64,000 nt of DNA from Longimicrobiales bacterium. Lineage in GTDB: Bacteria; Gemmatimonadota; Gemmatimonadetes; Longimicrobiales; Gaopeijiaceae. The notes beneath the pieces are model-generated. The model did no database searches. It was not told the DNA's origin and saw nothing but the letters and a program-made list of their open reading frames with translations. The translations under genes were made by a program, and so were the position numbers. Below are positions 4,701 through 63,267 of this stretch, piece by piece (position 1 is the stretch's first letter; each line of letters starts with the position of its first letter). The DNA lies in the NCBI GenBank assembly GCA_965219445.1, contig CBDCNQ010000003.1, positions 64,001-128,000 of the forward strand. The letters run 5' to 3'.

Positions 4701-4895
4701 CTGTTTTCCCGCCTCCAGCGGATGGGCAACGGTGGGATCGCGCGCTGAGCGGCGCATCCATAAATAACCGAGCTCCGACTCAGAAGCCCCCCGAGATGCG
4801 CGTCGGACACTGGCACATTGAGGGTTGTCATACCCTTTCGTCAATGGCACCAGAGGGTTTGGCTCAGATCTCAGTGATCCACGACAAAGTGAATC

Positions 4896-27989: not shown

Positions 27990-29597
<1,608 letters not shown>

Positions 29598-29804
29598 GAC
29601 GACTCCTGGGTATGGCGGAGAAAACTCGATGTGGAGCAAACGTTAGGCTCCGGCGTCCGATTCCCGCTTCTGCCGCGTGTCCAAGATGCGGAACGCGAGC
29701 GAAGTGTGCGACCCTAGCCGGTCGTCATCACGGCCGACGTGCGTTGGTGCGCATTCGACTGAACGTGAAGGGTGTAGACTTCTAGGATCCGTGCGGCAGA
29801 TCTT

Positions 29805-31220: not shown

Positions 31221-31226
31221 GGGAGA

Positions 31227-32570
31227 TCAGATCCCCGGGAGTGCATCGATCTGAAGCGCTCCGGTGCTCGCTCCGATCCTATCCACCGGCAGACCCTGCT
31301 TGTCCATGAGCGTGACAAGAAGATTGGCCATCCCCGGCTCATCGGAATACGTGAGATGTTGACCGCCTCGGAGGGTTCCCGCGCCACCTCCCATCACGAG
31401 GATTGGAAGGTTCTGGCCGGAGTGCCGCGTGCTATTGGAGATCCCCGCGCCATACAGGATGGTCATGTTGTCCAGCAGCGTTCCGTCCCCGTCGGGGGTC
31501 GCCCGAAGCTTGGCCAAATACCGGGAGAAGAGCTCGGTGTGGTAGCGGTTGATTCTCGACATGCGCTCGACCAGCTCCGGCTGGTTGTTGTGATGCGAAA
31601 GCGGATGGTGAGCGTCAGGTACGTCGATCTGCGGGTAGGGCCGCGGGCTCTGCTCTTTGCCGATCATGAACGTGATGACCCGCGTCAAATCGGCCTGGAG
31701 GGCCAGAACCTTCAAGTCCGTCATCAACTCCAGGTGGTCTTCGAACACGTGCGGCGCACCCTCGGGTTGCTCGAAGTTGGGCAGCTCGATATCGATCTGC
31801 TCCTCGGCCCTCTGAATTCGCCGCTCGACATCTCGGATGGCCTCCGTGTATTGCTCCACCTTTATCTGATCCTGTGACCCGAGCTCCCGGCTGAGGGCGC
31901 CTATCTTGTCGGTCACGGAGTCGAGTATGCTTTTCTGCTGCGTCAACCTCTCCTCCCGAGCCCCGCGCTCCGTGGAGCCGGCGTCGCCGAACAGTCGCTC
32001 GAACACGACCCGCGGATTGTACTCCGTCGGCAGGGGCTGCGTGGGGCCGCGCCACGAGAGCGTATGCGTATAGACGCAGCTGAGGTTGCTGCTGCAGGCT
32101 CCCGCGTTCGCCGAGGCGTCCATGGAGAGCTCCAACGAGGCCAGCTGGGTCTCCCGGCCAAATTCTCGCGCCAGGAGCTGATCCATCGAAACGTCGGCGA
32201 AGATTTCAGTCTCGGTGCGCCCGCCCTGAGGAATGCCAGTCAGGAACGATCCGGAAGCACCTGCGTGGATCTGGACCCAGTTCGCTCTGACTCCCGAAAG
32301 AACCAGCATCTGATCCCGAAATGGCTCCAGGGGCTCGAGAATCGGTGTGAGACCGAAATCTCGCCCCTCCCCCTTGGGAGACCAGTACTCCATCGCCATC
32401 CCGTTCGGTACGTAGAACGTCTGGAACCGATGTACACGCTCGGGCACGGCCTGTCCGCGGAGCCCGAAGGCGGGGAACATCGAGTCGAGGAACGGTAGCG
32501 CCAAACTCGCGCCGACGCCCTTTAGAACGGTTCGTCGCGGGAGCGTTTTCCCAGCCAAGATATTCAACAT
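31227..32570 (-). CDS. DUF1552 family protein (Tat-like signal)
   Basis: PRRTVLKGVGASLALPFLDSM, YVPNG, SMDQ, NPRVVFERLFG, HHPLSHH. Confidence 0.92.
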   Translation of the reverse strand: MLNILAGKTLPRRTVLKGVGASLALPFLDSMFPAFGLRGQAVPERVHRFQTFYVPNGMAMEYWSPKGEGRDFGLTPILEPLEPFRDQMLVLSGVRANWVQIHAGASGSFLTGIPQGGRTETEIFADVSMDQLLAREFGRETQLASLELSMDASANAGACSSNLSCVYTHTLSWRGPTQPLPTEYNPRVVFERLFGDAGSTERGAREERLTQQKSILDSVTDKIGALSRELGSQDQIKVEQYTEAIRDVERRIQRAEEQIDIELPNFEQPEGAPHVFEDHLELMTDLKVLALQADLTRVITFMIGKEQSPRPYPQIDVPDAHHPLSHHNNQPELVERMSRINRYHTELFSRYLAKLRATPDGDGTLLDNMTILYGAGISNSTRHSGQNLPILVMGGGAGTLRGGQHLTYSDEPGMANLLVTLMDKQGLPVDRIGASTGALQIDALPGI

Positions 32571-32601
32571 ACGTGCCCTCCAAGTGTGTTCTGTTTCCGC
32601 C

Positions 32602-35163
32602 TCAGATCGCTTCTGCGGACCGGCGCATGAGAAAAGCCGGGCTCTTTGCGATTCCAATTACGATCGATGACCAACGGTAGTCGTTGTCTTCGGCGTCGCG
32701 TACAATCTGCCGCACGGTTGGCATATCGAAGTACTCGAGTGGACGCCCCAGCGCGTATGACATGAGCTTCTCGGTTACCGTGCCGACGAACTGCTCATCA
32801 TAGTCGAGTAGGAGTGCCCTCAGCGACCGCACCCCATTCAGCTCTACACCGCTCGGCCAGGTTCCAGCGTTATCCACCGGACCACCTCTCTCATCGGTGA
32901 CCCGCCACTGTCCCACGGCATCGAACTCCTCTAGGGCGAACCCAAGGGGATCCATAAGCGTATGGCAGCTGGCGCATAAAGGATCGGCTCGGTGCTGTTC
33001 CAGTCGCGCCCGGATGCCAAGAGCCTCCGCGTCCGCACTCTGGTCCAGGCTGGTGTCCACGTTGGCCGGCGGCGGTGGCGGATCCGCGCCCAGGATATTG
33101 TCCAGAAGCCACTTGCCTCTCAACACGGGCGACGTGCGGTCCGGGTACGCGGTTATGGCCATCAGCCCCCCGTGCGCGAGCAGTCCGCCCCGCTGATCGG
33201 GATTCGGAAGCGTGATTCGGCGAGGGCGGCTACCGTATACACCCGGGATCCCGTAGAACCTCGCTAATCGCTCATTTGCGTACGTGTAGTCAGCGCTCAA
33301 CAGCTCCGGAATGGGCCGATCCTCCCTCAGACTGTTGGCGATGAACATTTCGGTCTCCTGTTGGAATGCTTCCAGGAGACTGTCGTCGAAATCGGGATAT
33401 TTGAGGGGATCGGCGAGCTTCTCGGGAAGTAGGCGAAGGTTGAGCCACTGAGCTGCAAACCCGTCGACGAGCGCGTCGACGGCTCGTGGATCCGCCAACA
33501 TCCTTCGAACCTGTTCCTCGAGCACCGCGGGGTCGGTCAAGCGCCCCTCTTCCGCCAACTCGAGCAAGCCCTCGTCGGGGATACTGCTCCACAGGAAGAA
33601 GGACAGCCGGGAGGCAACTGTCACATCGTCGAGAGCATAGACTTCACCGGGCTCGATTCCGGTCGGCGCAGGATAGATACGGAAGATAAACTCAGGATCG
33701 ACCACGAGTCGCTCCAACGCGAGCTGGATCCCGGAGTCGAAGCTCCCCCCCTCCGAGCGACCCTGGCGGAAGAACTGGAGCAGTACCTCCAGGTCCTGGT
33801 CTTTGGTGGGACGGCGATAGGCCCGCCGGGCCATCCGCGAGAGGATCTGCGTGGCACAGGCCTCTTCTTCCGCGCCTGGCTCGGGACGGCACACGAAAAT
33901 TTCGTTCCGGCTGGGGGTGTCCGCGGCAGTGCCGGTGATCGCATAGGGGCCCGCGATCTGAACCGACTCTACGCTGGCCTGGTCCATGTAGATCTGATCG
34001 TTCGTCAGAACCCTCCCTCTCTGACGCGGCTGCGGAAGCAATTCCGGCTCCCACTGCTCTCTGACGAACGAAACGCCGACCACGTGAGGTCCGGCCGAGA
34101 CCGTGAGGCGGACCTCCAGATGGGCGTCTCCGGTCGTCTGCATATATTCTTCCCACTCGGGAGCACCCGCTGAACCCGGCTCCCCCGCGCCGGCGTAGCT
34201 GGCGGGCGCGGGCCTGAACTCGGTGGCTCCCCCGCCCACGGTGAACCTATCGAGGAGAGCTTCGTCGAGCCTGACGTCCAGCTGTTGCTGCCATCCCATG
34301 CCCATCAGGTAGTCTTGGTACTGCCTGCGGAGCAGGATCTTGATCAGGTATTCTCCATCAGCAGGAAAATCGTAGCGAACGGCAATGCCGCCCCGTGACC
34401 CGAAAGGGAGGTTTTCACTTTGACGCTGGTCCTGCACGACGTGGAGCGGGACCCTGAAGGTTTCCACGCCTGGAGCCGTGGGAGGGAGGCCCGTCGCAAG
34501 ACGGGTCACCTGCCGCGCCAGGGACATGTATCGCTCCATATGCGTCGTCGTGATGGAGAGGGCGTCGGCGTAATTGTCGAAGCTGCCGTCCGCCGTCTCG
34601 TCACCCGGAAGAAGCGACCTTACATCCAAGTCGAGCCCGAATAGGTCGTTGATGGCGTTGTTGTACTCCAGGCGGTTGAGACGGTGGATCGGATTGGTCC
34701 TGCCCGGGTGGGGCCCGGCCTCCGAGGCCGCCTTGTCGAGTTCCGTCTCCAGCCAGCTCGCCGCGAAGTCATACTCGGCCTGCTCGGGCCTCCGCACGCC
34801 ACCCGGTGGCATCGTGCCGGTTCGCAGCTTACGGATTACCGCCTCCCAAGTACTGGCCGCCGCGCCGGGGTTTTCGACGTCCACTACGTCGAGCGCCAGT
34901 CCACCGGTGACACGCCTCTCGTTGTGACATCTGACGCAGTACGTGTCCAGGATCTCACGGAGCTCCTCCGGGTCCGCCTGAGCCGGGTTGGACCGAGCCG
35001 GGTTCCATGTAGCCGGAGCGGTGAACGCAAGGTCGGCCGAAGTAGTGTGCGCGCCGATCACTGTCATCGCGCCCCCACCCACGAGAAGGAGCGCGGCCAG
35101 CGAGGCGTGCCCGGCCCTGGAGGATCTACGGGGGGTGGGAAGCATGTTACTCGTCATGATCAC
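32602..35163 (-). CDS. DUF1587/1592/1595/1588/1585 multi-domain diheme cytochrome c protein
   Basis: YCVRCH..MPP, HRLNRLEYNN, ASRLSFFLWSSIPD, RTSPVLRGKW, CASCH..MDPLGFALE; start may be ATG 35157. Confidence 0.92.
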   Translation of the reverse strand: MIMTSNMLPTPRRSSRAGHASLAALLLVGGGAMTVIGAHTTSADLAFTAPATWNPARSNPAQADPEELREILDTYCVRCHNERRVTGGLALDVVDVENPGAAASTWEAVIRKLRTGTMPPGGVRRPEQAEYDFAASWLETELDKAASEAGPHPGRTNPIHRLNRLEYNNAINDLFGLDLDVRSLLPGDETADGSFDNYADALSITTTHMERYMSLARQVTRLATGLPPTAPGVETFRVPLHVVQDQRQSENLPFGSRGGIAVRYDFPADGEYLIKILLRRQYQDYLMGMGWQQQLDVRLDEALLDRFTVGGGATEFRPAPASYAGAGEPGSAGAPEWEEYMQTTGDAHLEVRLTVSAGPHVVGVSFVREQWEPELLPQPRQRGRVLTNDQIYMDQASVESVQIAGPYAITGTAADTPSRNEIFVCRPEPGAEEEACATQILSRMARRAYRRPTKDQDLEVLLQFFRQGRSEGGSFDSGIQLALERLVVDPEFIFRIYPAPTGIEPGEVYALDDVTVASRLSFFLWSSIPDEGLLELAEEGRLTDPAVLEEQVRRMLADPRAVDALVDGFAAQWLNLRLLPEKLADPLKYPDFDDSLLEAFQQETEMFIANSLREDRPIPELLSADYTYANERLARFYGIPGVYGSRPRRITLPNPDQRGGLLAHGGLMAITAYPDRTSPVLRGKWLLDNILGADPPPPPANVDTSLDQSADAEALGIRARLEQHRADPLCASCHTLMDPLGFALEEFDAVGQWRVTDERGGPVDNAGTWPSGVELNGVRSLRALLLDYDEQFVGTVTEKLMSYALGRPLEYFDMPTVRQIVRDAEDNDYRWSSIVIGIAKSPAFLMRRSAEAI

Positions 35164-35407
35164 GAGCGTGTGATTCGATTCGCTTCACTTCTTCGTGGGC
35201 GTGATCCAGCCTCAGCGCTCGATTCCTCGCTCGGATATCACCGGTGGCGCGACTCCGTGTTTGGTCCGAACTCACGGAGGATATCGACATGAGCTTTTCG
35301 ACGTCTTGGCTGCCGCACGAGGGACATTCAGAGACAGGCGATGAATTCAGCACAAGAACCTCGAACTCATCCCTGCAAGCTGAACAACGAAACTCGAAAA
35401 TCGGCAT
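35147..35407 (-). CDS. FmdB-family zinc-ribbon protein
   Basis: MPIFEFRCSAC..FE..CPSCGS..KLMS; GGAGG RBS. Confidence 0.9.
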   Translation of the reverse strand: MPIFEFRCSACRDEFEVLVLNSSPVSECPSCGSQDVEKLMSISSVSSDQTRSRATGDIRARNRALRLDHAHEEVKRIESHARDHDE

Positions 35408-35638
35408 CCTACCTCCAGGTGCCCTCTTTGCCCCAAAATAACGGCCGAGACCCCCATGTTCCAAAAAGTCGGTCCCCGCTCCCGTCCCTGACCGTGCGGA
35501 TCGACGGGAAGATGCGGCCAATCGGGATGCGATATCATACGTCAACCTACGCGGCAAGCAAGTGCAGACGTATGGTCGACTTAAGCCCCCCCGCGCATGT
35601 ACGCGAGCCCCCCCCACGCGTGTACGCGCGCGCGCCCT

Positions 35639-35716: not shown

Positions 35717-37264
35717 ATGAGCAGAAATCGTATGCAGACCAGGCTCGGAGCGTTGCTACGACGGGGTCTCGGGGTGTTGCCGATGTTGGCTGCGGTCGGC
35801 CTTATTTCTCTGGTCCCCGCCTCGGTCTCTGCGTGGGACGCGAGCCCTCAAGTGCCCGACGCGTTCACCCAAACGCGCACCGGGGCCGAATATCCGGTGA
35901 CGGTGACTCTGGTTCCCAATCCGAGGACGGACCTCACGTACGCAAGGGACGTAGCGCCGATCATCCAGCAGAGCTGCGAGAGATGCCATATGCCGGGCAA
36001 TGTGTCCCCGATGGTGCTCCAGACTTACGAGCAGGTGAAGCTATACGCGCCGCTAATCCGCGACCGGGTGATCAGGCGGCAGATGCCGCCCTGGCCCATC
36101 GACAGGACGGTCGGGATCATGGAGTTCAAGAACGACCCGTCCCTGAGTGACGAGGAGATCAGGACGATCGTGGATTGGGTGGATGCGGGCGCGCCGCTCG
36201 GCGATCCGGCGGACCTGCCCGAGCCGATGGTGTGGCCCGATGGAGTAGAGTGGGAGTTCAAGGCGGACCTGGGGCCGCCGGACATGGTGCTCCAGTCGCC
36301 CTTATACAAGGTGGTGGCCAACGGGATGGACCAGTGGCCCACTCCGATCACGCCGCTCGAAGAGGTGCAGATTGAAGGAGAGCCTCTCACCCAGGATCGG
36401 TGGATCAAGGCCGTTGAGGTCCGACCGCACAACGTCGAGGCTCGGTATGTCTTCCACCACGCCAATCCCGGCCTCATCATGCCCGGGGAGATCGTTGATC
36501 CGATGGAACCGGAGTCGGGGAGGGTCAAGTTCATCGATTCAGCGGTCGGGACCACGGGCCGGATCTTTCCCGACAACCAGGGCCGGATGATCCGGCCGGG
36601 ATCGAGCGTTAGTTGGAGCCTGCATTACTTTCCGTACACCCACGACATCGATGCCGCGCTACAAGTCGCTGTCTGGTACTACCCTGTGGGGTATGAGCCG
36701 GAGTTCTACAGCATGGGCGACGTCAATATGCAGACCAGCATGACCTCGTACACCGGTGAATTCAGTCCACGAAGCGGAGCGCGGGACAGTAGCGGTCGGC
36801 TCCACAGTCACTCGGATATTCTCATTCCCCCGAACAGCGTCACCACCCTGAAGGGGGTCCACAAGTTGGACCGGCCCGCCATGATGCACAGCATCCGGGG
36901 GCATATGCACTTGCTCGGGAAGTATCAGATTGTCGAAGCGATCTATCCCGACGGCAGGTGGGAACTCATCAGCAAGCTCAATTGGGATCACAGCTGGCAC
37001 ACGCTGTTCCTGTACGAGGACCACGTGGCGCCGTTGTTCCCCACGGGAACCGTGCTTCTTCTGAGCTCGACGTTCGACAACACGGTCGAAAACCCGCACA
37101 ATCAAGACCCGGATCAGTGGATCACCGGGGGAGACCGGAGCGTCGACGAGATGGGACATATCCGCCTCGGCCTCACATATTTTGAGAGCGAGGAGGACTT
37201 CCAGAGGATGGTCGAGGAACGGGAGCGTACTCTGGCTACGATGCCCACGGTCGATCAGCCGTAG
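35717..37264 (+). CDS. Exported cytochrome c-fused copper monooxygenase (PHM/DBH-like fold)
   Basis: CERCH..MPPW; HH (VFHHAN), LHY, GHMHLLGK, DEM. Confidence 0.82.
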   Translation: MSRNRMQTRLGALLRRGLGVLPMLAAVGLISLVPASVSAWDASPQVPDAFTQTRTGAEYPVTVTLVPNPRTDLTYARDVAPIIQQSCERCHMPGNVSPMVLQTYEQVKLYAPLIRDRVIRRQMPPWPIDRTVGIMEFKNDPSLSDEEIRTIVDWVDAGAPLGDPADLPEPMVWPDGVEWEFKADLGPPDMVLQSPLYKVVANGMDQWPTPITPLEEVQIEGEPLTQDRWIKAVEVRPHNVEARYVFHHANPGLIMPGEIVDPMEPESGRVKFIDSAVGTTGRIFPDNQGRMIRPGSSVSWSLHYFPYTHDIDAALQVAVWYYPVGYEPEFYSMGDVNMQTSMTSYTGEFSPRSGARDSSGRLHSHSDILIPPNSVTTLKGVHKLDRPAMMHSIRGHMHLLGKYQIVEAIYPDGRWELISKLNWDHSWHTLFLYEDHVAPLFPTGTVLLLSSTFDNTVENPHNQDPDQWITGGDRSVDEMGHIRLGLTYFESEEDFQRMVEERERTLATMPTVDQP

Positions 37265-37295
37265 TCGAAGAACCGTAGTAGGTAGTGGTAGGAGA

Positions 37296-37331
37296 GCCCG
37301 GCCTGCGCCCCGCACGGGGCGCAGGCCGGGC
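37296..37331. other. Perfect 17-bp GC-rich inverted repeat in the intercistronic region
   Basis: gcccggcctgcgccccg-ca-cggggcgcaggccgggc; no U-tract. Confidence 0.7.
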
Positions 37332-37396
37332 ACAGCTTGGGGAACGAGGGACCCTCACGCCGAATAGAGTACGCCGAATAAAGGACGAGGCAGCCG

Positions 37397-38329
37397 ATGA
37401 GATCGCGACACTTTTCCCCGACAGGAGTCCTGCTCGCTGGGATGTTTGTGCTTGGCTCGATGTCTCTCGAGGCGCAGCAGTGGGAAGAAAAAATTCCGGG
37501 CAATGCGGGTGAGTGGAACGTACGGATGCTGCGCCCCACGGGGCAGCCCGTGATCCCCATTTTTGACGGCTGGGTTTCCGAGGACGACGGCTCGGCAACC
37601 CTGTGCCTCGGATACTTCAACATGAATTTCGACGAAGCCCTGGAAATTCCGCTCGGGCCGAACAACTACATCGAGCCCGCCCGCTTCAACGGAATTCAAC
37701 CGACGTATTTCAATCCCGTGCCGATGCGTGCCGGCAACAAGCAGCGACACTATTGTGTCATGACCGTGAACGTGTTCCAGGGGGACGCTGAGCCCATCGT
37801 CTGGCACCTTGGACGTGACTATAAGGACTACTCGGTTCCCGCCCACTCGGGAGCGCAGCATTTCCGCGTCAACGACATTTTCTTCCCCACGGATCGAGCT
37901 GATCGGGGAGGATCCATGGCACCGCTCGTCCGGTTCGTCGAGCCGGCGGGGCCGGAGGGAATAGGCAAGGGCCTTCTTGGCGGGAAAAGGGTCGGGCCTG
38001 TCAACGCTACGGTCGGCGAGCCGCTGCCCCTCACCCTGGCCGTGAGCCAGCCGAGCCCAGAGGACTACCCCGAGGTCGCGCCCTACACGGGTGAGCCAAA
38101 GAGCTTCGAGGTAACTTGGCAGAAGTACTCTGGACCTCCTGACATCCTTGGAATCGTGACCTTCAGCGAGAACGTGTTCGAGGTCGGGCCGGGGGAAGGG
38201 ATCGCCGAGACGACCGCTCTGTTCCGGGAACCCGGCGACTACGTGCTACTTGTGCAGGTTCTCGGCGGCGGATACGACAACCAGTGTTGCTGGACGAACG
38301 GTTATGTGGAGGTGACGGTCTCCCCGTAG
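37397..38329 (+). CDS. Exported hypothetical protein with C-terminal Ig/PKD-like domain and CCWTN motif
   Basis: Signal peptide; GQPVIPIFDGW..CLGYFNMN..IPLGPNNYIEP; WQKYSGP..VTFS..FREPGDYVL..CCWTNGY. Confidence 0.82.
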   Translation: MRSRHFSPTGVLLAGMFVLGSMSLEAQQWEEKIPGNAGEWNVRMLRPTGQPVIPIFDGWVSEDDGSATLCLGYFNMNFDEALEIPLGPNNYIEPARFNGIQPTYFNPVPMRAGNKQRHYCVMTVNVFQGDAEPIVWHLGRDYKDYSVPAHSGAQHFRVNDIFFPTDRADRGGSMAPLVRFVEPAGPEGIGKGLLGGKRVGPVNATVGEPLPLTLAVSQPSPEDYPEVAPYTGEPKSFEVTWQKYSGPPDILGIVTFSENVFEVGPGEGIAETTALFREPGDYVLLVQVLGGGYDNQCCWTNGYVEVTVSP

Positions 38330-38385
38330 CGCGAAGTCGTTCTTACTCGGTCGCGGCCCTCAACCCCCGGCGCGCTTCCGTCGGC

Positions 38386-38502
38386 TCACATCCCAGAGAC
38401 CGGCACCATTCCCGTCATAGTGAACTTCTGGGCTCGAGCGCCCACGTTGACTTCCGCCGTGTACAGGTTGCCGTCCGGATCAGCGACCATGTCATGTAGG
38501 AT
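38386..38502 (-). pseudogene. 3'-end remnant of an NHL-repeat gene
   Basis: LHDMVADPDGNLYTAEVNVGARAQKF resembles the last blade of 43744-45240; upstream sequence is unrelated. Confidence 0.7.
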
Positions 38503-38722
38503 GTGAGGGCAACGTGTACATGATCCACGACCGTGGCGAAGGCCAAGCTGGGCTGGACACTCGTTTCTCCCTTGACGCTCTCTTGGCACGGCTCCTATTC
38601 TGTTGGACCGCGTCCGGGAGATGATCGAAGTCGTGATCGCAATGGCTTCTCTACGTGAAGTGGTGAGGACGATTTTGTGAGGATGAGGAACATTTTTTGA
38701 GGGTATAGTCCCTTCTGATCTC

Positions 38723-40801
38723 ATGAGGAATGAAATGGAGATGGCCAGACGTAATGCACCGCGGCTCAGGCAGAGAGCGAACGGATTGTATCGTGCCCTG
38801 GGGTTCAGCGTTCTGCTGGCGGCACCGGCATCCCTCGTCGCGCAGAGTGCACCTGGGACGGCGAACGGAGAGTGGCGATATCTGGGTGGGGACGCCGCCC
38901 ATACCCGGTATTCGCCCCTGGACCAGATCGACGCCAGTAACTTCGAGGATCTGGAGATCGCGTGGATCTGGCGGGCGGACAACTTCGGCCCCACGGTCGA
39001 CTATGCGTTCAAGTCCACACCAAGCTTCGTCGACGGGATGCTCTTCACTGCGGTGAGCGAGCGGCGGCAGGTGGCTGCCATCGATCCTGCTACGGGTGAA
39101 ACCCTTTGGGTCTTCCGCGAGCCCAACACGTTGCGGTGGGAACGCTCCATGCGGCAGAACTATGGAAAGGGAGTGACGTACGCAGAGGTCGATGGCCGCG
39201 GGGTCGTCTATATCACCACGCCCGGTTTCTTCCTTCACGCGCTCGACGCCAAGACGGGGCGGCCGCTGGAAGGATTCGGAAGGCCCGTTCCGATCGAAGG
39301 CTTTCCTGAGACGGGGGTTGTGGATCCCCTGGAAGATCTCGTGAGGGACTGGCTACCCTTTGAGGAGCTCGGCCAGCAGTTCGACCATTATGCGGGAATT
39401 CCCCGGGAAATTGGAATGATCACCGCTTCGGCGCCGCCCATCGTGGTGAACGACGTGATCGTGGTGGGTAATTCCCACGAGCAGGGTTACAACCAGACAC
39501 GGGTCGAGAACGTGCCGGGTGACATCATGGGCTACGATGCCCGGACCGGTGAGTTTCTGTGGAAATTCCACGTCATCCCGAGGCCCGGCGAATTCGGGCA
39601 CGAAACGTGGGAGAACGGCTCATGGCTTACCGCTGGGGACGTCTCGTCGTGGGCCCCCATGTCGGCGGATCCCGAGCGGGGCCTCGTATATATCCCCACC
39701 AATCCACCGACAATAGACTTTTATGGCGGCTTCCGCCCGGGAGACAACCTCTTCGGCACTAGTGTCATCGCCCTGGACGTCCAGACCGGGGAACGGGTAT
39801 GGCATTTCCAGACTGTTCATCACGACATCTGGAATTTCGACAATCCCACGGCCCCGATCCTGCTGGACGTGACGATAGACGGAGAGCCGACTCCGATCGT
39901 CGTCCAGACCACGAAGCAGGGCTGGGCCTACACCTTCAACCGGGAGACCGGCGAGCCGATTTGGCCCATCGAGGAACGCCCGGTGCCGCAGTCTGAGGTT
40001 CCGGGTGAGCAACTGTCTCCTACTCAGCCATTTCCCACGTGGCCGCTGGCGTACGAAGAGCAGGGGCTCACCGAGGACGACCTGATCGATTTCACGCCCG
40101 AGCTCCGTTTAGATGCACTGGGGATCATTCAGAACTACCGGATCGGACCCATCTTCAACCCGCCGATCCAGATGGGCCATCCGTCCGGCCTGCGCTCGTT
40201 CGTCAGCTGCCCGTCGGGTGCGACCAACATCCCCGGTCCGACGTCCGCCGATCCGGAGACCGGGATTCTCTATGTGTCGTCCAACAAGGGGTGTCGGTCC
40301 GAGAGGCTCGTTCCCGGCCGCGATATCGATGAACCCGACGACATCATGACCACTGGCTCGACCTACTCGGACTTTGCCGTCCTCGATCGTGGAGACTTCA
40401 GGGGCCCTCAAGGCCTCCCGATCCACAAGCCTCCTTACGGCCGGATCACGGCCATCGACATGAACACAGGGGAGCACCTGTGGTGGATCCCCAACGGGGA
40501 CACACCCGAGCGAATCAGGAACCACCCTGCGCTGCAGGGGGTGGACCTGCCCAACACCGGCCAGACTTCGAAAGCCATCACGATGGTCACGAGGACGCTG
40601 CTCTTCACTGCCGAGGGTGGTGGAGGCGAGCCCCGTCTCCATGCCGTGGACAAGCAGACTGGCGAACGACTGGGGACCGTCGATCTGCCGGCCGCGGGCC
40701 AATACGGCATGATGACCTACATGCACGAAGGGAAGCAGTACGTTGTGGTGCAGACCGGCGGAAGGACCCCTGGAGCACTGGTGGCACTGCGGCTGCCGTA
40801 A
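38723..40801 (+). CDS. PQQ-dependent dehydrogenase (soluble glucose/quinate DH-like), no cytochrome
   Basis: RYSPLDQIDASNF, SADPERGLVYIPT, VWHFQTVHHDIWNFD, PIWPIEERPVP, KPPYGRITAIDM; exact start uncertain. Confidence 0.88.
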   Translation: MRNEMEMARRNAPRLRQRANGLYRALGFSVLLAAPASLVAQSAPGTANGEWRYLGGDAAHTRYSPLDQIDASNFEDLEIAWIWRADNFGPTVDYAFKSTPSFVDGMLFTAVSERRQVAAIDPATGETLWVFREPNTLRWERSMRQNYGKGVTYAEVDGRGVVYITTPGFFLHALDAKTGRPLEGFGRPVPIEGFPETGVVDPLEDLVRDWLPFEELGQQFDHYAGIPREIGMITASAPPIVVNDVIVVGNSHEQGYNQTRVENVPGDIMGYDARTGEFLWKFHVIPRPGEFGHETWENGSWLTAGDVSSWAPMSADPERGLVYIPTNPPTIDFYGGFRPGDNLFGTSVIALDVQTGERVWHFQTVHHDIWNFDNPTAPILLDVTIDGEPTPIVVQTTKQGWAYTFNRETGEPIWPIEERPVPQSEVPGEQLSPTQPFPTWPLAYEEQGLTEDDLIDFTPELRLDALGIIQNYRIGPIFNPPIQMGHPSGLRSFVSCPSGATNIPGPTSADPETGILYVSSNKGCRSERLVPGRDIDEPDDIMTTGSTYSDFAVLDRGDFRGPQGLPIHKPPYGRITAIDMNTGEHLWWIPNGDTPERIRNHPALQGVDLPNTGQTSKAITMVTRTLLFTAEGGGGEPRLHAVDKQTGERLGTVDLPAAGQYGMMTYMHEGKQYVVVQTGGRTPGALVALRLP

Positions 40802-40821: not shown

Positions 40822-40923
40822 GTCCTGCGTGTGCGAGTGGATAACTTCAACCCCCTCGACAGCACGCCCGGAGACCGGTGTTGCTGGACGAACGGGTACT
40901 TGAGCGTAACCGTATCTCGTTAG
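40822..40923 (+). pseudogene. 3'-end remnant of a CCWTN-family gene
   Basis: VLRVRVDNFNPLDSTPGDRCCWTNGYLSVTVSR-stop. Confidence 0.78.
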
Positions 40924-40988
40924 CGGACGTTCAGAAGCCGTGCCAATGGCTCACTAGCGGACGTTCAGAAGCCGAGCCAATAACTCAC
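40921..40988. repeat. 34-bp tandem duplication of the DUF5916 gene 3' end (31/34 identical)
   Basis: tagcggacgttcagaagccgtgccaatggctcac / tagcggacgttcagaagccgagccaataactcac. Confidence 0.9.
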
Positions 40989-43743: not shown

Positions 43744-45240
43744 TCATCGATTCAGGCTATACAAACCCACATCCGCGTTACCGGTGCCACTGCATCCTGT
43801 CTCTTCCCCATAACGCAGGAACTTCTGGATCCGCTGGCCCGTGTCGACCTCTCCGGTATAGAGGTTCCCCTGCGAATCGATGCTGACGACATGGACCCAG
43901 TGGAATTCGCCGATCTGGCGGCCCGAGCGTCCGATACGGTCCAGTTCGTGCAGGTTTTCCCGGTTGAGGATGTAGATCGTGCCGTTAGCCAGGTCTTCCA
44001 CGTAGAGGCAGGTCTGCCCTGGATCGGTGGAGAAGTTCACCGCCCCCGAAGTGCCACTCGCCGTATGCGGCGCAATGTGGACCTCACCGACGAAGCCGCA
44101 CACGCCGGGCTCCGCGTTGGGGTTGCTGCACACTTCGCCGACTTGGTTCACGTCGAATATCTGCACACGGTTGTTGCCCCGATCGCAGGCATACAACAGT
44201 CCGTCGACGCTGAGTTTCGCACAGTGGAGCGGGCTCCGGAAAAACCGTGGCTTCATGTTGCCGGACTGATAGTCGGCACTCCACGGGCCGGCGTCGTAGG
44301 GGTCGATATCCGTGCCATCGGGATCATCCACTGGGTTCTGACCATACGCGCCGAAGTGACCCACGTATTGGCCCGTCTCTGCCTCGACGATCAAAATGCG
44401 TCGATTTCCATAGCCGTCCGCGATGTAAAGGAGATTCGTCTCCGGGTCGACCGTCATGTCCGCCACCAGATAAGGCTGCGGAGTCCCGTTGGGTCCGCCA
44501 CTGATGTTCTCGCTGTCCGGACCTTCCATTCCGGCATGGCCGATCTGATAAATAAACTCGCCGTCTGCCGTAAACTTCAAGACGTGTGAATCGTCCCCGA
44601 AGGTTGCCGCCCACGGAAAGTCGCCAAAGAAATTCTGCCCATTTCCAGAGATGTAGACGAAATCATTGTGGTCTACGAAGATGCCGTGCTCGCGGGCCGG
44701 CCAGGAACAGCCATCCTCCTCGCGGCAATTCTCTTCGAGAAAGCCTGGGTCGGCCGGGCCACCCCACGCGTCCAGCAGATTCCCCGCCGGGTCGAACTTG
44801 AGGACCGAAGGTGCCGGAACGCAGCAGCCGGCACGTTGGTCGGCAAAAGGCCTGGGATGTCCCAAACCGCTCACCGGGACGCCGTTTTCGTTCATACCAG
44901 CGATGCCCAAGCCGGCGGCGGCGCTTGCGTCGAGCGCTCGAGGCCGGTGGTACACCCAGATGTTGTCGTGCTGATCGACGAACAGACCACCGATTTGGCT
45001 CACTCGCCAGTTGTTCGGCAGGGGCTTTGGCCAGCCCGCATCCACGACGAAGCTCGGGGCAGATCCGCCCTCGGGAACACGGGGGGTCGTCCGTTGTGCC
45101 AGGCGCTCAAATGCGCCGCTCATATCGAGTGCGGCCACCGCGTCGACCGCGCCATCCATTCCACGTTCCGAGTCGGCGCACCCGGTTGAAAGAGCACAGC
45201 CCAGTAGGGTGGCCATGGCTGCGTATTTGAGGTGCTTCAT
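43744..45240 (-). CDS. NHL-repeat lipoprotein, PAL-like
   Basis: Lipobox LSTGC; VDAGWPKPLPNNW, EHGIFVD, IADGYGNRRI, PLHC, CDRGNNRVQ, WVHVV. Confidence 0.87.
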   Translation of the reverse strand: MKHLKYAAMATLLGCALSTGCADSERGMDGAVDAVAALDMSGAFERLAQRTTPRVPEGGSAPSFVVDAGWPKPLPNNWRVSQIGGLFVDQHDNIWVYHRPRALDASAAAGLGIAGMNENGVPVSGLGHPRPFADQRAGCCVPAPSVLKFDPAGNLLDAWGGPADPGFLEENCREEDGCSWPAREHGIFVDHNDFVYISGNGQNFFGDFPWAATFGDDSHVLKFTADGEFIYQIGHAGMEGPDSENISGGPNGTPQPYLVADMTVDPETNLLYIADGYGNRRILIVEAETGQYVGHFGAYGQNPVDDPDGTDIDPYDAGPWSADYQSGNMKPRFFRSPLHCAKLSVDGLLYACDRGNNRVQIFDVNQVGEVCSNPNAEPGVCGFVGEVHIAPHTASGTSGAVNFSTDPGQTCLYVEDLANGTIYILNRENLHELDRIGRSGRQIGEFHWVHVVSIDSQGNLYTGEVDTGQRIQKFLRYGEETGCSGTGNADVGLYSLNR

Positions 45241-45481: not shown

Positions 45482-45961
45482 ATGAGTAGTGTGAATTTGA
45501 ATCATTCTTTGGTTACGGTCTCGCTCCCGCTGGTCTGGGCTCTCGCCCTGACGGCGTGTGGCTCGGTCCAGCAGCCGGAGACTATTGCCCCTTCTCCCGG
45601 CTCGTCACAGCCCGAGGTTGCCACGCCTGCCGGCACCTCGGTATTGGACGGTGTCTTCACGGAACGGCAAGCCACTCGGGGCGAGACGAGGTTCGGGCAA
45701 GTGTGTGCGGGCTGCCACAGAATCAACGAATTCGCTGGCGGCAGGTTTAGAGTCGTTTGGGTGGGCCGCACGGTAGGGGACCTCTTTCAGACGATTTCGA
45801 CACTGATGCCCGAAGACAACCCGGGTAGCTTGAGCCCCGAGGAATATGCCGCCATCGTCGGATACATATTGAGGGAGAACCGCTATCCGGCGGGCGATGC
45901 AGACCTGGCGGCCGACGCGTCTGCGCTACAAGACATACCCATCGAGGCACCCGGCGCGTAG
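45482..45961 (+). CDS. Monoheme cytochrome c lipoprotein
   Basis: Lipobox LTAC; GVFTERQATRG..CAGCH..LMPEDNPGSL; same fold as the N-terminal domains of the PQQ enzymes. Confidence 0.88.
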   Translation: MSSVNLNHSLVTVSLPLVWALALTACGSVQQPETIAPSPGSSQPEVATPAGTSVLDGVFTERQATRGETRFGQVCAGCHRINEFAGGRFRVVWVGRTVGDLFQTISTLMPEDNPGSLSPEEYAAIVGYILRENRYPAGDADLAADASALQDIPIEAPGA

Positions 45962-57060: not shown

Positions 57061-57094
57061 GAGCGCCCTTCTAGACCACCGTCAGGAGGCATGA

Positions 57095-59329
57095 ATGGAT
57101 CACATTCGGAAGAGGTGGGAGACTGCCCGCAGCGGCGGCCGGGCGCTCACCCTCCTTTCTTTGGGTCTCGCCTTGTCCCCAAATAGCGCCACGGCGCAGG
57201 GGGTGAGTAGCGCACGCCAAGCCCCGTATACCCTGGAGCAGGCAGCGACGGGTGCGCAGGTCTACGAGACGGCGTGCGCGGCATGTCACCTTTCGGGTCT
57301 GCAGGGTTCGTCCGAGGCTCCGGAACTGGCAGGCCGAAACTTCCGGAACCAATGGGGAGACCGTCCGGTAGGGGACCTTCTTACGTACGCAAGGCGGACG
57401 ATGCCCCCAGCAGCTCCCGGGTCCATCAGTGATGAAGAGTACGTGGCTGTGGTGGCGTACCTTATGCGATCCAATGGCGCGAGCCAGGACGAGGAATCCT
57501 TAACTTTCTCCACGCAGGGCCTGGCTCTTCGGGCGGAGGGCACGTTGGCCGGCGCTGGGGATGCTCCGGGGGCGGCCGGCATCCGGCCGGCCCCCGGTCG
57601 CCTCGGCACGATCCCCTCCGCTCAGGGCGTGGCGCGAGCGCCCGAGGTGATCGGCCGACTCTACGAGACTCCAACCTCCAGGACCGAGACGTTTGTTTCA
57701 GTAGATAGGTTCGATCCGGTTTCGGATGCTGAACTCCTTTCCCCACCTCCCGGTGATTGGCTTCACTGGCGCGGGAATCCAAGCTCCTGGGGATACAGCC
57801 GTCTCGACCAGATCAATACACAGAACGTCCAAGATCTCCAGCTCGCTTGGGTCTGGCAGATGGAGGTCGACGAACTGAGGGGTTGGCAGGGTCCTTTGGT
57901 CCGGGACGGGATCCTCTTCCTGAGCAATCCAAGGAACGTCGTCCAAGCGCTCGACGCGACGGACGGAACCCTGCTCTGGGAGTATCAGCGCCGATTTCCG
58001 GATGCCGACAGCGGGATAAACCTCCGGACTCTCGCGATCTGGGAAGACCTGATCTTCGTTGCGACTCGCGACGCCCACATGGTGGCTCTGGATGCGCGGA
58101 CGGGGGGGCTGCGCTGGGAGACACGGCTTGCCGACTCGCGTCAGGGATACACGAACAGCACCGGGCCGATTGTCGCGGGCGGAAAGGTGATCAACGGGAT
58201 AAATGGGTGCCAACGCTACTTCGAAGAGACCTGCTTCATCACAGCCCATGACGCCCGAACCGGCGTGGAGCTCTGGCGCACTCATACAGTGGCCCGTCCG
58301 GGCGAGCCGGGGGGGGACACCTGGGGTGACCTCCGCACGGGGTTGCGGGGTGGGGGAGACGTCTGGAACGGGGGGAGCTGGGATCCGAATCTGAATCTCG
58401 TGTACTTCGGCGTGGCCCAAGCCAAGCCCTGGGTTGCGGCGAGCCGGGGACTCACGGCGGCCGACTCGGCCCTCTACACCAACTCGACGCTGGCGCTCGA
58501 CGCCGACGACGGGCGGATCGTGTGGTACCGCCAGCACGTGCCGGGCGAAAGCCTAGACCTGGATGAAGGGATGGATCAGGTGTTGGTGGACGTCGAGGGG
58601 GTGCCGACGTTGCTGACGATGGGGAAGTACGGGATCCTATGGAAGCTCGACCGGAGGGACGGGTCGTTCTTGGGGCTCAAGGATTCCGGCATCCAGAACG
58701 CTTTTGCAGACGTGGACCCTGAGACGGGGGCTGTGCGCTACCGGGACGATATTCAACGTGCGCGCACCGGCGACTGGATCTCTGTGTGCCCCTCGACGGC
58801 CGGTGCTCACAACTGGCACTCCAGCTCCTATCACCCGGACACGCGCCTGCTGGTAATCCCGATGGGCCAGAGCTGCATGGAGATCGCCGGCCGAGAGGCC
58901 GTGCTCGAAGAGGGCTTGGGTGGCGCGGGAGCGAGCAGGGTCTACATGGAGATGCCGGGCACGAACGGGCGCTTCGGGAAGCTCGCGGCCTACCACGTAG
59001 AGACCATGGAGGAAGTTTGGAGTGTGGAGCAAAGGGCACCGTTCCTTACCGCTGCTCTCACGACGGCCGGCGGGCTCGCGTTCGCCGGGGGTTACGACCG
59101 GTGGATTCGCGCCTACGACGTGGAGGCTGGGCGGGTCCTGTGGGAAAGCCGATTGGGCAGCCCGGTGGGAGGTTATCCGATCACGTACGAGGTGGACGGG
59201 GTACAGTACCTGGCAGTGGCTACGGCTACGGGCGGGGGCACGGCCCATCGGATCGGCATCTTCCTCACTCCTGAGTTTCGGATCCGCGAGAATAACGCGC
59301 TCTACGTCTTTAGATTGGGTGCGCCCTGA
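57095..59329 (+). CDS. PQQ-binding beta-propeller dehydrogenase with N-terminal cytochrome c (paralog of 2490-4700)
   Basis: CAACH..TMPP; shared blocks such as [20 protein letters not shown] and [12 protein letters not shown]. Confidence 0.9.
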
Positions 59330-59517
59330 GCCGTGAGCCTAAGTGGGCTACCTCCATTGGGATGGTTGGGTGCCGGGTCCGGCGGGTGTAGGGGCTCGCC
59401 ATACAGCATCTTGTGAATACATGACGTGTCCTTATAGTATGGGTTTGTGCTTAGTAGTATGGGTAGATAAGCGGAGATGATTCTCACCGTTCGACGGAGA
59501 GCAAGGAGGCCAGGGCC

Positions 59518-60984
59518 ATGAAGAGCGGAATCGGCAGGTTCCAGCGGAGTTCGAGGGCGCTCGGGGGGTTAGGATTGTTTACGTTGGTCATCGGGGCCGT
59601 TATGGCCGCCTATCCTGGGCCTGCTTCTGGACAGCACTCCGACGGCCTCGTCACCTTCACGAGAGACGTGGCGCCGATCCTCCAGAATAAGTGCCAGACA
59701 TGCCATCGCGACGGTTCGATCGGGCCGAGGCCATGGACCACCTTTGAGGAGGTTCGCCCCTTCGCAGCGTTGATCAAGCACCGGGTGGTCACGCGGCAGA
59801 TGCCGCCCTGGCCGATGGACAAGACCGTTGGGATCCAGGAATTCAAGAACGACATCTCCCTAAGTGAAGAAGAGATCGGGACGATTGCTGAATGGGTTGA
59901 TTCCGGAGCGCCGATGGGGGATCCGGCGGACATGCCGGCACCGATCGATTGGGCGGCCTTTGAGGACTCTTGGCGGTACGAAGAGCATTTCGGTCGCCCG
60001 CCGGATATCGTGGTTGCTTCACCCAGGTATTTGGTGCCCGCGAACGAGTTGGATCACTGGCCTAGCCTCACGACGGACATACCGGGGCTTACGGATGCTC
60101 GGTGGATTCAGGGCGTTGAACTCAGGCCAGCGGACGCTGAAACACGGTATGTCTTTCACCACGCCAATCCCTCCATCATACAGGATGGGGGGAACGTTTC
60201 CACCGGGCATTCGGCGGCGGGAACGGTGGGATATATCTTCCCCGACGATACCGGACAGCGCCTTCTTCCGGATGCGAAACTCCGATTCGGTATGCACCTC
60301 TTCCCGATCGACAGGGACGTGAATGCCTCTTTGGTCCTCGGATTTTGGCTATATCCGGAGGGCGAGGTCCCGGAGTTTGCGACCCCAGGCGAAGTCCTAC
60401 ACGAGGCTAGCCAGAGTACGGGGTTCGGCCACGAGGTCACCTCAACGATGGGATTTGGCCCCGATCGTGGGAATGGGGGAGGAAGAGGCGGCGCGAGTAG
60501 CGATCCCCAATTCCCGCGTCAGGTGGATCTCCTGATCCCTCCGCACAGCACGGCAACCTTCCGCGGGGTTTACGTCATGGACAGGCCCGCCCGGATTCAC
60601 AGCCTCCGCGGGCATATGCACCTGCGAGGAAAGTACCAGATAATTGAGGCGATATACCCAGACGGTCGGTGGGAGGTGATCAACAAGCTCAATTGGCACC
60701 ACGGGTGGCAGACCGCCTTCCTCTACGAAGATCACGTGATGCCCCTGCTGCCCAAGGGCACCGTGCTCATGGTCACCAACGTGTTCGACAACACCGCGGA
60801 CAATCCGCACAATCCTGACCCCAATCAATGGGTCGTAAGGGGGGACCGAACGGTCGACGAAATGACCCACTCTCGAATCGGCATGACCTACTTCGATAAT
60901 GAAGAGGACTTCGAGAGACTGGTCCGAGAGCGGGCACAGCTCTTGGCCGAAAGAGAGAGCCAGGGGCCACTAGCGGGGGGGTAG
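59518..60984 (+). CDS. Exported cytochrome c-fused copper monooxygenase (paralog of 35717-37264)
   Basis: CQTCH..MPPW; VFHHAN, MHL, GHMHLRGK, DEM. Confidence 0.82.
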   Translation: MKSGIGRFQRSSRALGGLGLFTLVIGAVMAAYPGPASGQHSDGLVTFTRDVAPILQNKCQTCHRDGSIGPRPWTTFEEVRPFAALIKHRVVTRQMPPWPMDKTVGIQEFKNDISLSEEEIGTIAEWVDSGAPMGDPADMPAPIDWAAFEDSWRYEEHFGRPPDIVVASPRYLVPANELDHWPSLTTDIPGLTDARWIQGVELRPADAETRYVFHHANPSIIQDGGNVSTGHSAAGTVGYIFPDDTGQRLLPDAKLRFGMHLFPIDRDVNASLVLGFWLYPEGEVPEFATPGEVLHEASQSTGFGHEVTSTMGFGPDRGNGGGRGGASSDPQFPRQVDLLIPPHSTATFRGVYVMDRPARIHSLRGHMHLRGKYQIIEAIYPDGRWEVINKLNWHHGWQTAFLYEDHVMPLLPKGTVLMVTNVFDNTADNPHNPDPNQWVVRGDRTVDEMTHSRIGMTYFDNEEDFERLVRERAQLLAERESQGPLAGG

Positions 60985-60993
60985 AGCGACCTG

Positions 60994-61881
60994 ATGGGAT
61001 CGAGGTGTTTGGTGGGGGTTACCGTTCTCGCTGTTGGGCTGTCCGCAGCGGGGCCGCAACCTCTGGATGCGCAGGACAACCCGGCGTATGAGCCCGTGCA
61101 GGACCGGGTTCCGGGCACGGCCGGGGATTTGATGCTACGGAACCTGCGGCCATCCGGCCAGCCCATCATCCCTCTCTTTGATGGTTGGTTCCGGAACCCT
61201 GACGCTACCGTGGACTTGTGCTTCGGATACCACAATCTGAACACGGCTGAGGACGTTCAGATTCCACTGGGGTCCGACAACTTCATCGAGCCAGCTCGCT
61301 TCGACGCTGTTCAGCCGACCCACTTCGATCAGGTACCGGACATATACAGACGGCGCTTCTGCGTCTTCACGGTGCATCTGGACGACCTTGCCGACGCACC
61401 CGACGTGGTATGGACACTCCGGATTGGAGGCCGGGCCTACTCTGTTCCCGGGTCCAGCTCACAGCTCTACCGAATGGACGAGATCCAGCAGTCTTCCAGG
61501 GGGAATAGCGCACCCTTGGTCCGATTTGACGATGAGGGGCACAGAGGCCGAGCGACGATGATGGATGGGGAGACCGCCACCGCGAGGGTGGGCGATCCGC
61601 TGCCGCTGTCCATTTCGGTGAGTGATCCAGAGGGGATCCCGCTCGGGAGAACGCGGATTATCTGGGCCAAACATCAAGGGCCTGGCAACGTGACGTTCAG
61701 CGAGGAAGAGATCGAGGTGGTCGAGGAGGGGGTGCGCTTCACGCTCACCAGCACCGCGACCTTCAGCGAGGCCGGGGATTATGTGATCCGCGTGCAAGCT
61801 GTCGACTGGGATCTGGGCAACGCGTTTGGCTTCCACTGCTGCTGGACGAACCGCTACTTGAGCGTCTCTGTTACCGAGTAG
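60994..61881 (+). CDS. Exported CCWTN-motif hypothetical protein (paralog of 37397-38329)
   Basis: GQPIIPLFDGW..CFGYHNLN..IPLGSDNFIEP; WAKHQGPGNVTFS..FSEAGDYVIR..CCWTNRY. Confidence 0.84.
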   Translation: MGSRCLVGVTVLAVGLSAAGPQPLDAQDNPAYEPVQDRVPGTAGDLMLRNLRPSGQPIIPLFDGWFRNPDATVDLCFGYHNLNTAEDVQIPLGSDNFIEPARFDAVQPTHFDQVPDIYRRRFCVFTVHLDDLADAPDVVWTLRIGGRAYSVPGSSSQLYRMDEIQQSSRGNSAPLVRFDDEGHRGRATMMDGETATARVGDPLPLSISVSDPEGIPLGRTRIIWAKHQGPGNVTFSEEEIEVVEEGVRFTLTSTATFSEAGDYVIRVQAVDWDLGNAFGFHCCWTNRYLSVSVTE

Positions 61882-63003: not shown

Positions 63004-63267
63004 GCTTCTCCTCGACATCGCCCACGCCAACTGTGTTTGGCTCCGACGTCAACCTCGTGGGCCAGCTCGCTCCCAGCAAGATCGATCGCGGTCAGCTCCT
63101 CCCGTCTTTGAGAGGCCCGGATTCGAGTTGACAACGAGGAAAGCTACCCCAACAATCCATCGCTCGAATCAACCCACTTTGGAGATCCCCATGACGCTGC
63201 AGCCAATGTAGCAGCGGCCGCCCGAGGGCGCGTTGAAAGGCTTGCCCTGGCGGTATTGAAGGACAGC

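Follow-up and report, generated by a model that had tools for sequence, protein, structure and literature searches.

A cytochrome c-fused homologue of PHM and DBH and its Ig-like partner in Gemmatimonadota

Introduction

What does a bacterium do with a probably exported protein that carries a heme motif followed by the copper ligands of PHM (peptidylglycine alpha-hydroxylating monooxygenase) and DBH (dopamine beta-hydroxylase)? PHM and DBH are usually regarded as eukaryotic, ascorbate-fed enzymes. The question is raised by a 64,000-nucleotide stretch of DNA (hereafter the window; positions 64,001 to 128,000 of contig CBDCNQ010000003.1, assembly GCA_965219445.1, a Longimicrobiales bacterium of the Gaopeijiaceae), in which such a gene stands at two loci, each time followed by a gene for a protein with the motif CCWTN. 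A first-pass annotation had read both loci as a periplasmic pathway of four parts, in which a dehydrogenase using pyrroloquinoline quinone (PQQ) would supply electrons to the copper enzyme and an NHL protein resembling the lyase PAL would cleave the product. Here, we report that the two-gene core of enzyme and partner is well supported, whereas the evidence does not bear out the four-gene pathway as a fixed system. The best explanation, to which we assign a probability of roughly 0.55, is that the pair forms an exported two-subunit copper oxygenase of the PHM/DBH type, fused to cytochrome c, that would hydroxylate C-H bonds with O2.

Results

The window enzymes belong to the PHM/DBH structural family

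Both large open reading frames have N-termini that resemble signal peptides by eye and contain CxxCH, MPPW, HH, a third His, HxH and DEM, in agreement with the first-pass annotation. A CCWTN gene follows each of them, after a gap of 132 bp at the first locus and 9 bp at the second. The four genes are as follows, CuH and CuM being the two copper sites.

35717..37264, plus strand: MO1, enzyme paralogue 1, 515 aa, with signal peptide, cytochrome c, CuH, variable loop and CuM; CxxCH at C87/C90/H91, M123; CuH H247, H248, H303; CuM R394, H396, H398, M479, H481
37397..38329, plus strand: CC1, partner 1, secreted, two predicted Ig-like beta-sandwich domains, the fold taken from its paralogue CC2
59518..60984, plus strand: MO2, enzyme paralogue 2, 488 aa, with cytochrome c, CuH and CuM; C59/C62/H63, M95; CuH H214, H215, H260; CuM R364, H366, H368, M449, H451
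60994..61881, plus strand: CC2, partner 2, secreted, two predicted Ig-like domains

MO1 and MO2 are 51% identical, and their heme and copper motif residues (CxxCH, MPPW, HH, third His, HxH, DEM) show no variation across the 118 aligned homologues. Mature MO2, as modelled by AlphaFold (pLDDT 89.3, pTM 0.86), contains two tandem beta-sandwich domains of the PHM fold. When the model was searched with Foldseek, PHM and DBH ranked first, with 1PHM as the top match (E 2.4e-12), and VIA aligned it with 1SDW at Z 19.2 (root-mean-square deviation 3.2 over 243 residues), the next unrelated fold reaching Z 7.8. Further structure comparison gave Z 20.9 for DBH chain A (293 residues), 20.4 for 5WJA and 20.1 for 6ALA (root-mean-square deviation 2.6), about 1 Z unit above the open forms of PHM. 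The entry 6ALA is described as a closed PHM conformer (PMC12164859), so these scores may hint that the modelled enzyme is nearer to the closed form. Superposition on PHM, which had been set beforehand as a check, thus recovered the PHM fold from the predicted structure at Z about 19-21.

The relationship was also found by sequence. With a profile of 56 divergent members, PHM was reached (E 9e-7), as was DBH (E 2e-5), and the ligand motifs (HH, third His, HxH, DEM) aligned in register; single-sequence and close-profile searches of the PDB missed PHM, which was reached by the divergent profile alone. In the ESM Atlas, clusters of Cu2_monoox_C were returned at 0.92, with the family present on 18-23% of members, and one of 19 paralogue sequences scanned passed the Pfam cut-off for Cu2_monoox_C (23.3 vs 23). 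The proposed assignment of HH/H to CuH and HxH/M to CuM was borne out by the fold matches and the profile alignment together, with all six ligands in register. We conclude that MO1 and MO2 are PHM/DBH homologues that lie inside this structural family and outside both the PHM and the DBH subfamilies.

Compared with PHM (1PHM, 1SDW, 6ALA), the window enzymes share the two-domain fold (Z 19-20), the HH..H and HxH..M ligands in register and the equivalent of Arg240. They differ from it in that the identity is about 16%, a cytochrome c is fused to the core, PAL is not, and a separate Ig-like partner accompanies a bacterial, multicopy enzyme. Since neither MO1 nor MO2 has a Cys after the heme motif, the disulfide-stapled core of PHM is also absent. 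With DBH (4ZEL) and tyramine beta-monooxygenase the shared part is the catalytic core, together with the possession of an extra N-terminal domain and accessory structure around it. Compared with DBH, however, cytochrome c takes the place of the N-terminal DOMON domain, the dimerisation domain is missing, and the position of PHM Arg240 is occupied by Arg. The new features are the heme fusion and the Ig-like subunit, and the kind of enzyme is itself known.

A fused cytochrome c as the probable electron entry

The N-terminal domain of MO2 is a helical cytochrome c that matched the monoheme cytochrome PccH (Z 7.3, VIA), and weak cytochrome c hits were the only Pfam matches of MO1 and MO2. Both proteins have the features of class I cytochromes c, with CxxCH and a distal Met, and the genome encodes maturation machinery (CcmE, Cytochrom_C_asm), which is consistent with covalent attachment of a predicted heme. 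Among long relatives (at least 400 aa), 4 of 35, distinct from the five partner fusions described below, have a redoxin domain. Probably, HH/H and HxH/M bind copper, activation of O2 takes place at CuM, and CuH receives single electrons from the heme; the suggestion that the heme domain is the likely point of electron entry is supported as a reading of these data.

In quinohemoproteins, N-terminal class I cytochrome domains act as electron exits. Electrons could accordingly leave the window enzymes through the heme, the copper core oxidising its substrate by dehydrogenation, desaturation or oxidative deamination and feeding the respiratory chain, as would the many heme-fused dehydrogenases of the same gene islands. 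The genome does encode many periplasmic proteins of the dehydrogenase type (37 PQQ-type propellers) and many cytochromes c, and no constant donor gene accompanies the pair. However, complete CuH and His2Met CuM sites, which are known for activating O2, are invariant; the redoxin domain of the relatives counted above is also a typical supplier of electrons. We consider this reversed electron flow unlikely.

A heme protein that reduces a copper oxygenase outside the cytoplasm has a precedent in lytic polysaccharide monooxygenase (LPMO) with cellobiose dehydrogenase. Unlike LPMO, which has an unrelated fold and a mononuclear site, the window enzymes carry the heme fused to the oxygenase.

The CCWTN protein is a constant partner of the enzyme

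The CC2 model consists of two beta-sandwich domains (pLDDT 89.8) with generic Ig-like matches only (best Z 10.3, in a comparison that barely tested the N-terminal domain), and the partner matched no Pfam, NCBIfam or PDB sequence family. Each of the 15 partner copies of the genome has a co-oriented enzyme no more than 1 kb away. Among GTDB loci, which are the best 80 of 506 confirmed matches and so are biased toward close relatives and not independent, a co-oriented enzyme abuts the partner in 75 of 79, in one order in 39 and in the other in 36. Pairwise identities of enzymes and partners correlate with a rho of 0.85 over 12 unambiguous paralogue pairs from G000, the genome of the window (0 of 5000 permutations) and of 0.70 over 111 pairs. 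Enzyme and partner are fused in 5 of 35 proteins of at least 400 aa (148 representatives examined), in both orders, and in one of these (P0367) the enzyme sits between the two domains of the partner. RNA-library contigs of close strains span MO2-CC2 in two studies, which indicates presence, not a single transcript; such contigs give neither level nor strand, and since the runs were chosen by this stretch their uncovered parts are uninformative. Taken together, the adjacency, the parallel divergence and the five fusions uphold the view of the CCWTN protein as a true partner. By analogy with the extra domains of DBH, the Ig-like protein is very probably an enzyme-bound subunit with a structural or gating role and no catalysis of its own.

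Some candidates were rejected. Apparent enzyme-partner fusions within the GTDB loci proved to be artefacts of overlapping reading frames, and the real fusions come from the long representatives. CC1 has four Cys, among them a vicinal CC, and a role of the vicinal pair as a catalytic or metal site was weakened by its absence from 3 of 15 paralogues and from the fusions P0275, P0279 and P0367. The idea that a CxxC tail on the enzyme stands in for the pair fits the three paralogues and fails for the same three fusions.

The family is expanded in the genome and its relatives

The first-pass annotation had counted the system twice, which is an undercount; there are 21 paralogues of the enzyme and 15 of the partner in the genome (here G000; 4.56 Mb, 92% complete). 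Of the 21, 19 have a full set of heme and copper ligands, one is cut by a contig end and one lacks the copper ligands. The latter (G000 C3:50268-51428; L006:6269-7429) has kept the cytochrome and the scaffold. At another locus, a cytochrome P460-like domain fused to a cupredoxin, another possible electron carrier, is encoded directly 3' of one pair (L008:8351-9343).

A scaffold derived from PHM could instead serve a non-catalytic or detoxifying purpose, such as copper buffering, redox sensing or the removal of superoxide or peroxide, and both a paralogue with heme and without any copper ligand and a cupredoxin/P460 gene next to a pair would suit such a role. We regard it as very unlikely, because a set of about 20 diverged paralogues, hypervariable in the cleft loop and invariant in the substrate-type Arg, fits substrate diversification and not housekeeping.

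Both families were found in 11 of 11 same-genus genomes searched, with up to 28 partner matches, and the partner in 35 of 201 genomes drawn from the phylum. Of 8000 clusters scored in the homologue search for MO2, 4239 had E<=1e-10; the search for CC2 gave 463 of 3526. Named homologues belong to Gemmatimonadota (Longimicrobiales, Candidatus Palauibacter), Acidobacteriota (Vicinamibacterales, Thermoanaerobaculia, Terriglobia) and, in one record, Acidimicrobiia, and the family is annotated as 'cytochrome c' or 'hypothetical' only. No published study of a heme-fused PHM-like family was found in a literature search that was short on subscription journals. Other families are also expanded in the genome (37 PQQ-type propellers, 40 NHL proteins and 27 copies of DUF5916), and DUF5916 and NHL genes share islands with the enzyme-partner pairs.

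The predicted substrate anchor is kept and the cleft loop varies

In PHM, Arg240 forms a salt bridge with the substrate carboxylate (PMC12164859). In the profile alignment, its equivalent lies two residues N-terminal to the first His of HxH (R394 in MO1, R364 in MO2). Arg is found at this position in 118 of 118 close homologues and in 77 of 111 paired enzymes (11 unparsed), and the 20 ligand-bearing paralogues of the genome have 12 Arg, 2 Gln, 3 Glu and 3 other residues. It is conceivable, at somewhat less than even odds, that the Arg-type paralogues, including MO1 and MO2, anchor a carboxylate and that the Gln and Glu types act on different compounds, amines for example.

Domain by domain, MO1 and MO2 are 60% identical in the cytochrome, 40% identical in CuH and 67% identical in CuM, and the figure falls to 15% in residues 330-368 of MO1. 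The length of this variable segment differs between paralogues (10-53 aa), and part of it is disordered in the model. Because it follows the first predicted CuM strand, it would be an insertion beside the cleft and not a linker. The loop is the least conserved part of the paralogues, as first noticed, but it lies inside the CuM domain and not between the two copper domains.

Two sets of paralogues illustrate the diversity. At two loci (L004 and L005; G000 C3:153347-158499 and C5:1390693-1393145), three paralogues have Glu at the Arg240 position and Asn before the CuM Met; their enzymes end in the CxxC tail mentioned above and their partners are without the vicinal Cys pair. They form a distinct subtype, possibly with amine substrates. 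A tandem triplet (L007; G000 C2:651853-658110) comprises near-identical enzymes, with two partners identical in DNA. The triplet shows 11 amino-acid differences, all within residues 189-313 (CuH domain and variable loop); at the DNA level all differences fall within residues 182-313 except two silent sites, and 4 of 6 synonymous changes cluster there. This pattern hints at tuning of specificity, and strain mixing in the assembly may also explain the differences.

PQQ-type genes are optional neighbours

The remaining features relevant to the four-part pathway are as follows.

38386..38505, minus strand: 3' remnant of an NHL (PAL-like) gene, 76% identity over 37 aa to the genome paralogue C5:714137-715465
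38723..40801, plus strand: PQ1, PQQ-type beta-propeller dehydrogenase homologue, no heme, not natively tied to MO1/CC1
40823..40926, plus strand: 3' remnant of a second partner gene (last ~30 codons, CCWTN), 82% over 104 nt
43744..45240, minus strand: NHL six-bladed propeller lipoprotein, PAL-like, a loose neighbour of the first pair only
45482..45961, plus strand: small cytochrome c, directly 3' of the PQ1 orthologue in three same-genus genomes
57095..59329, plus strand: PQ2, heme-bearing quinoprotein homologue with N-terminal cytochrome c and propeller, a candidate optional donor

A PQQ-type propeller does stand beside each pair, and the one at 57095-59329 bears a heme (one CxxCH) and the one at 38723-40801 none, as first described. 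However, the first placement looks deletion-derived, because a motif scan showed PQ1 to be flanked by the 3' remnants of an NHL and a CCWTN gene. A short direct repeat at 40915-40980, straight after the CCWTN remnant, is probably a deletion scar. In a same-genus genome (G006), the PQ1 orthologue is followed by a different, intact enzyme-partner-enzyme block. The small cytochrome c at 45482..45961 is likely the acceptor of PQ1 itself. At the second locus, PQ2 is absent from its place in G006, where a CMD-like gene directly precedes the MO2 orthologue, and one RNA-run contig also skips it (57066 to 59454). No PQQ neighbour was found at the five closest orthologues of MO1. A tandem gene for a CMD/AhpD-like lipoprotein (56245-57060, plus strand) is kept upstream of the MO2 orthologue more constantly than PQ2, being found there in L014, L015, L093 and one RNA-run contig.

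Among 66 loci with flanks longer than 1.5 kb, 23 have a PQQ-type gene at a distance of up to 1 kb; it is co-oriented in 17 and both co-oriented and heme-bearing in 14. These 14 belong to one subfamily, are 55-76% identical to PQ2 and accompany at least four enzyme clades in Gemmatimonadota and Acidobacteriota. The recurrence of one subfamily in several clades and two phyla indicates that the link to heme-quinoproteins is a real signal. Within G000, a PQQ-type gene is found within 1 kb of 6 of 17 units, compared with 3% of random genes and 4 of 27 DUF5916 genes (p 0.15). Because the control family comes so close, much of the proximity reflects islands of secreted-enzyme cassettes. Taken together, these results do not support a PQQ dehydrogenase as a fixed part of the pathway, since a co-oriented heme-quinoprotein accompanies only 14 of 66 loci and the placements of PQ1 and PQ2 are inconstant; a heme-bearing quinoprotein as an optional, dispensable electron donor is plausible.

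PQ1 and PQ2 pass the Pfam PQQ models, fall below all NCBIfam cut-offs and are homologous to eight-bladed propellers of PQQ alcohol and sorbose dehydrogenases (4CVB, 7WMD, 4MH1) and of the type II quinohemoprotein alcohol dehydrogenase 1KV9; PQ2 aligns over its full length with 4CVB (E 7e-90). In solved PQQ enzymes, the Asp after the active-site Trp is catalytic. Compared with these enzymes, the cytochrome of PQ2 is N-terminal, and PQ1 has Asn in place of the Asp; PQ2 keeps it as D488, with Leu replacing the Trp. The 37 PQQ-type homologues of the genome include one at window positions 2490-4850; several have Asn for Asp, and many have an acidic residue two places on.

No pqqB, pqqC or pqqE gene was found over cut-off in G000. 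Among 11 same-genus genomes no PQQ biosynthesis gene was found, pqqC being present in 0 of 11, and over cut-off it occurs in 0 of 50 genomes of the family and in 2 of 151 of the order, which served as the positive control. A TenA/PqqC-like pair beside a radical SAM gene was rejected as a route of PQQ synthesis; by eye, these are thiaminase II-like genes and a MoaA-like gene. With no detectable pqqB, pqqC or pqqE, the cofactor would be scavenged, different or absent, and in this respect the host resembles the 'acido-empty-quinoprotein' group. The 37 homologues may use scavenged PQQ or a cofactor of another kind.

Lyase-like NHL genes are not fixed beside the pair

A profile of 24 NHL proteins from the loci matched rat PAL (3FVZ) end to end in one colinear stretch (E 4e-54), yet generic NHL proteins score similarly. 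PAL employs a Tyr/Arg dyad (PMC10303134). The NHL protein encoded at 43744-45240 holds DGY, DR and three His motifs. These may lie at the positions of the PAL dyad and zinc site. The putative dyad Tyr is present in 10 of 24 aligned NHL proteins, and His takes its place in the three aligned proteins of the conserved quinoprotein block.

The first-pass annotation placed a PAL-like lyase at both loci. One was found near the first locus only, on the opposite strand and 6.5 kb from the enzyme, and the second has, as its nearest NHL gene, one for a piece of 158 aa at a distance of about 12 kb. Unlike PAL, the locus NHL genes are not fixed beside the enzyme. An NHL gene lies within 1 kb of the pair in 5 of 66 loci, none of 35 long representatives has an NHL domain, and neither a PAM-type fusion nor a constant monooxygenase-lyase linkage was seen, so that the lyase does not hold as a defined part of the pathway. 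Nor did the idea that the products feed nearby amidohydrolases find support, with 0 of 17 units having an amidohydrolase within 1 kb, no better than island clustering. In sum, conservation of the neighbourhood holds for the adjacency of enzyme and partner and fails for the PQQ-type and NHL genes.

We therefore regard it as improbable that the loci form a bacterial PAM operon that carries out N-dealkylation or amidation, with the neighbouring PQQ dehydrogenase as donor and the neighbouring NHL protein as PAL. This reading draws on the co-oriented heme-quinoproteins abutting the pair in 14 of 66 loci, on the excess of PQQ-type genes over random genes, on the colinear PAL match, on a partner-enzyme-quinoprotein-NHL block that recurs (L016, L018, L023, L053, L054), and on the co-oriented order NHL, PQ1, enzyme, partner, enzyme in G006. 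Against it stand the 52 of 66 loci without a co-oriented heme-quinoprotein, the rarity of nearby NHL genes, the loss of PQ2 from its place and the MO1 orthologues without a PQQ neighbour, an enrichment that is not significant against the DUF5916 family, the missing pqqC, and the His, not Tyr, of the conserved-block NHL proteins at the putative position of the catalytic Tyr of PAL.

Other neighbours of the pairs

The surrounding genes bear on whether the enzyme has a biosynthetic or host-directed role, in which it would amidate or hydroxylate secreted peptides of the bacterium itself or of an animal host. The kept equivalent of Arg240 fits such a role, as do homologues in records of Candidatus Palauibacter and Vicinamibacterales, a 200-nt exact match in an RNA run labelled sponge metagenome, and 40 NHL proteins in the genome, 17 of them with DGY. 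However, no recurrent precursor, nonribosomal peptide synthetase or exporter family was found among the neighbours (precursor peptides below 80-90 aa were not searched for), and the neighbours that recur are TonB receptors, DUF5916, DUF1552/1592 cytochromes and hydrolases. We judge a peptide-modifying role to be quite unlikely.

Further genes were observed in the window. A single run on the minus strand (27990-35163) encodes a DUF1592/DUF1588 cytochrome, a DUF1552 (HXXSHH) protein, an ankyrin protein and an AMP-binding enzyme, and the DUF1592-DUF1552-ankyrin trio recurs close to enzyme-partner pairs of other genomes. An FmdB-family zinc ribbon gene (35147-35410, minus strand) is divergent from MO1. 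A secreted protein of the metallo-beta-lactamase fold (61942-63030, minus strand) is subclass B3-like and far under every curated cut-off. The island also holds an IS3-like transposase and integrase pair (13830-15283, minus strand), and many secreted window proteins appear, by eye, to begin with Gln after the signal peptide.

Discussion

The cytochrome c domain and the PHM/DBH-related two-copper core make an extracytoplasmic hydroxylation of small molecules, driven by electrons that pass through the enzyme's own heme, likely. The predicted His/Met heme would supply the electrons in place of ascorbate, and the general cytochrome pool of the periplasm would probably re-reduce it, some lineages having recruited heme-quinoproteins as donors. 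The substrate would most likely bear a carboxylate, as an N-acyl amino acid or a peptide C-terminus does, and the C-H bond beside its nitrogen would be hydroxylated as in PHM. PHM hydroxylates glycine-extended peptides, after which PAL releases glyoxylate (PMC5461114). In the bacterium, the carbinolamide product could decay unaided, or any of the many PAL-like NHL proteins encoded in the genome could cleave it. The presence of about 20 paralogues that differ in their cleft loops is best explained by a catabolic toolkit with diversified substrates, which would act on nitrogen-containing organic matter.

Several observations weigh against this oxygenase reading. Neither MO1 nor MO2 reached the Pfam cut-off for Cu2_monooxygen or Cu2_monoox_C. 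The positions of PHM Asn316 and Tyr318, which have a role in peptide binding, are Met+2 and Met+4, and MO1 and MO2 have His and Arg there. Among distant representatives, the Arg240 position is Gln in 32 of 75 and Arg in 9 of 75; with Gln commoner than Arg in the wider family, a glycine-peptide substrate is not assured. Six paralogues are without an adjacent full partner, so the partner is not required by every member. Finally, that electrons enter through the heme is an assumption.

A broader and tentative picture is that of a large prokaryotic class of ascorbate-independent, self-wired PHM-type oxygenases in marine Gemmatimonadota and Acidobacteriota, with at least 20 specificities per genome. 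These enzymes might open a periplasmic hydroxylate-then-cleave route for N-acyl compounds and amines of dissolved organic matter, with one branch powered by heme-quinoproteins that use scavenged PQQ or a different cofactor, and the class may be the bacterial source of the chemistry of animal PAM and DBH.

The path of electrons to the O2-activating copper, by long-range transfer or by domain closure, is described as still disputed (PMC12164859). If the proposed mechanism is true, a soluble bacterial version with its own heme would provide a built-in optical probe of this electron-transfer step, and the family would offer new catalysts for C-H hydroxylation or amidation that do not need ascorbate. 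Because it is large, poorly annotated and strongly expanded in these lineages, the family could mark an unrecognised route of organic-nitrogen turnover.

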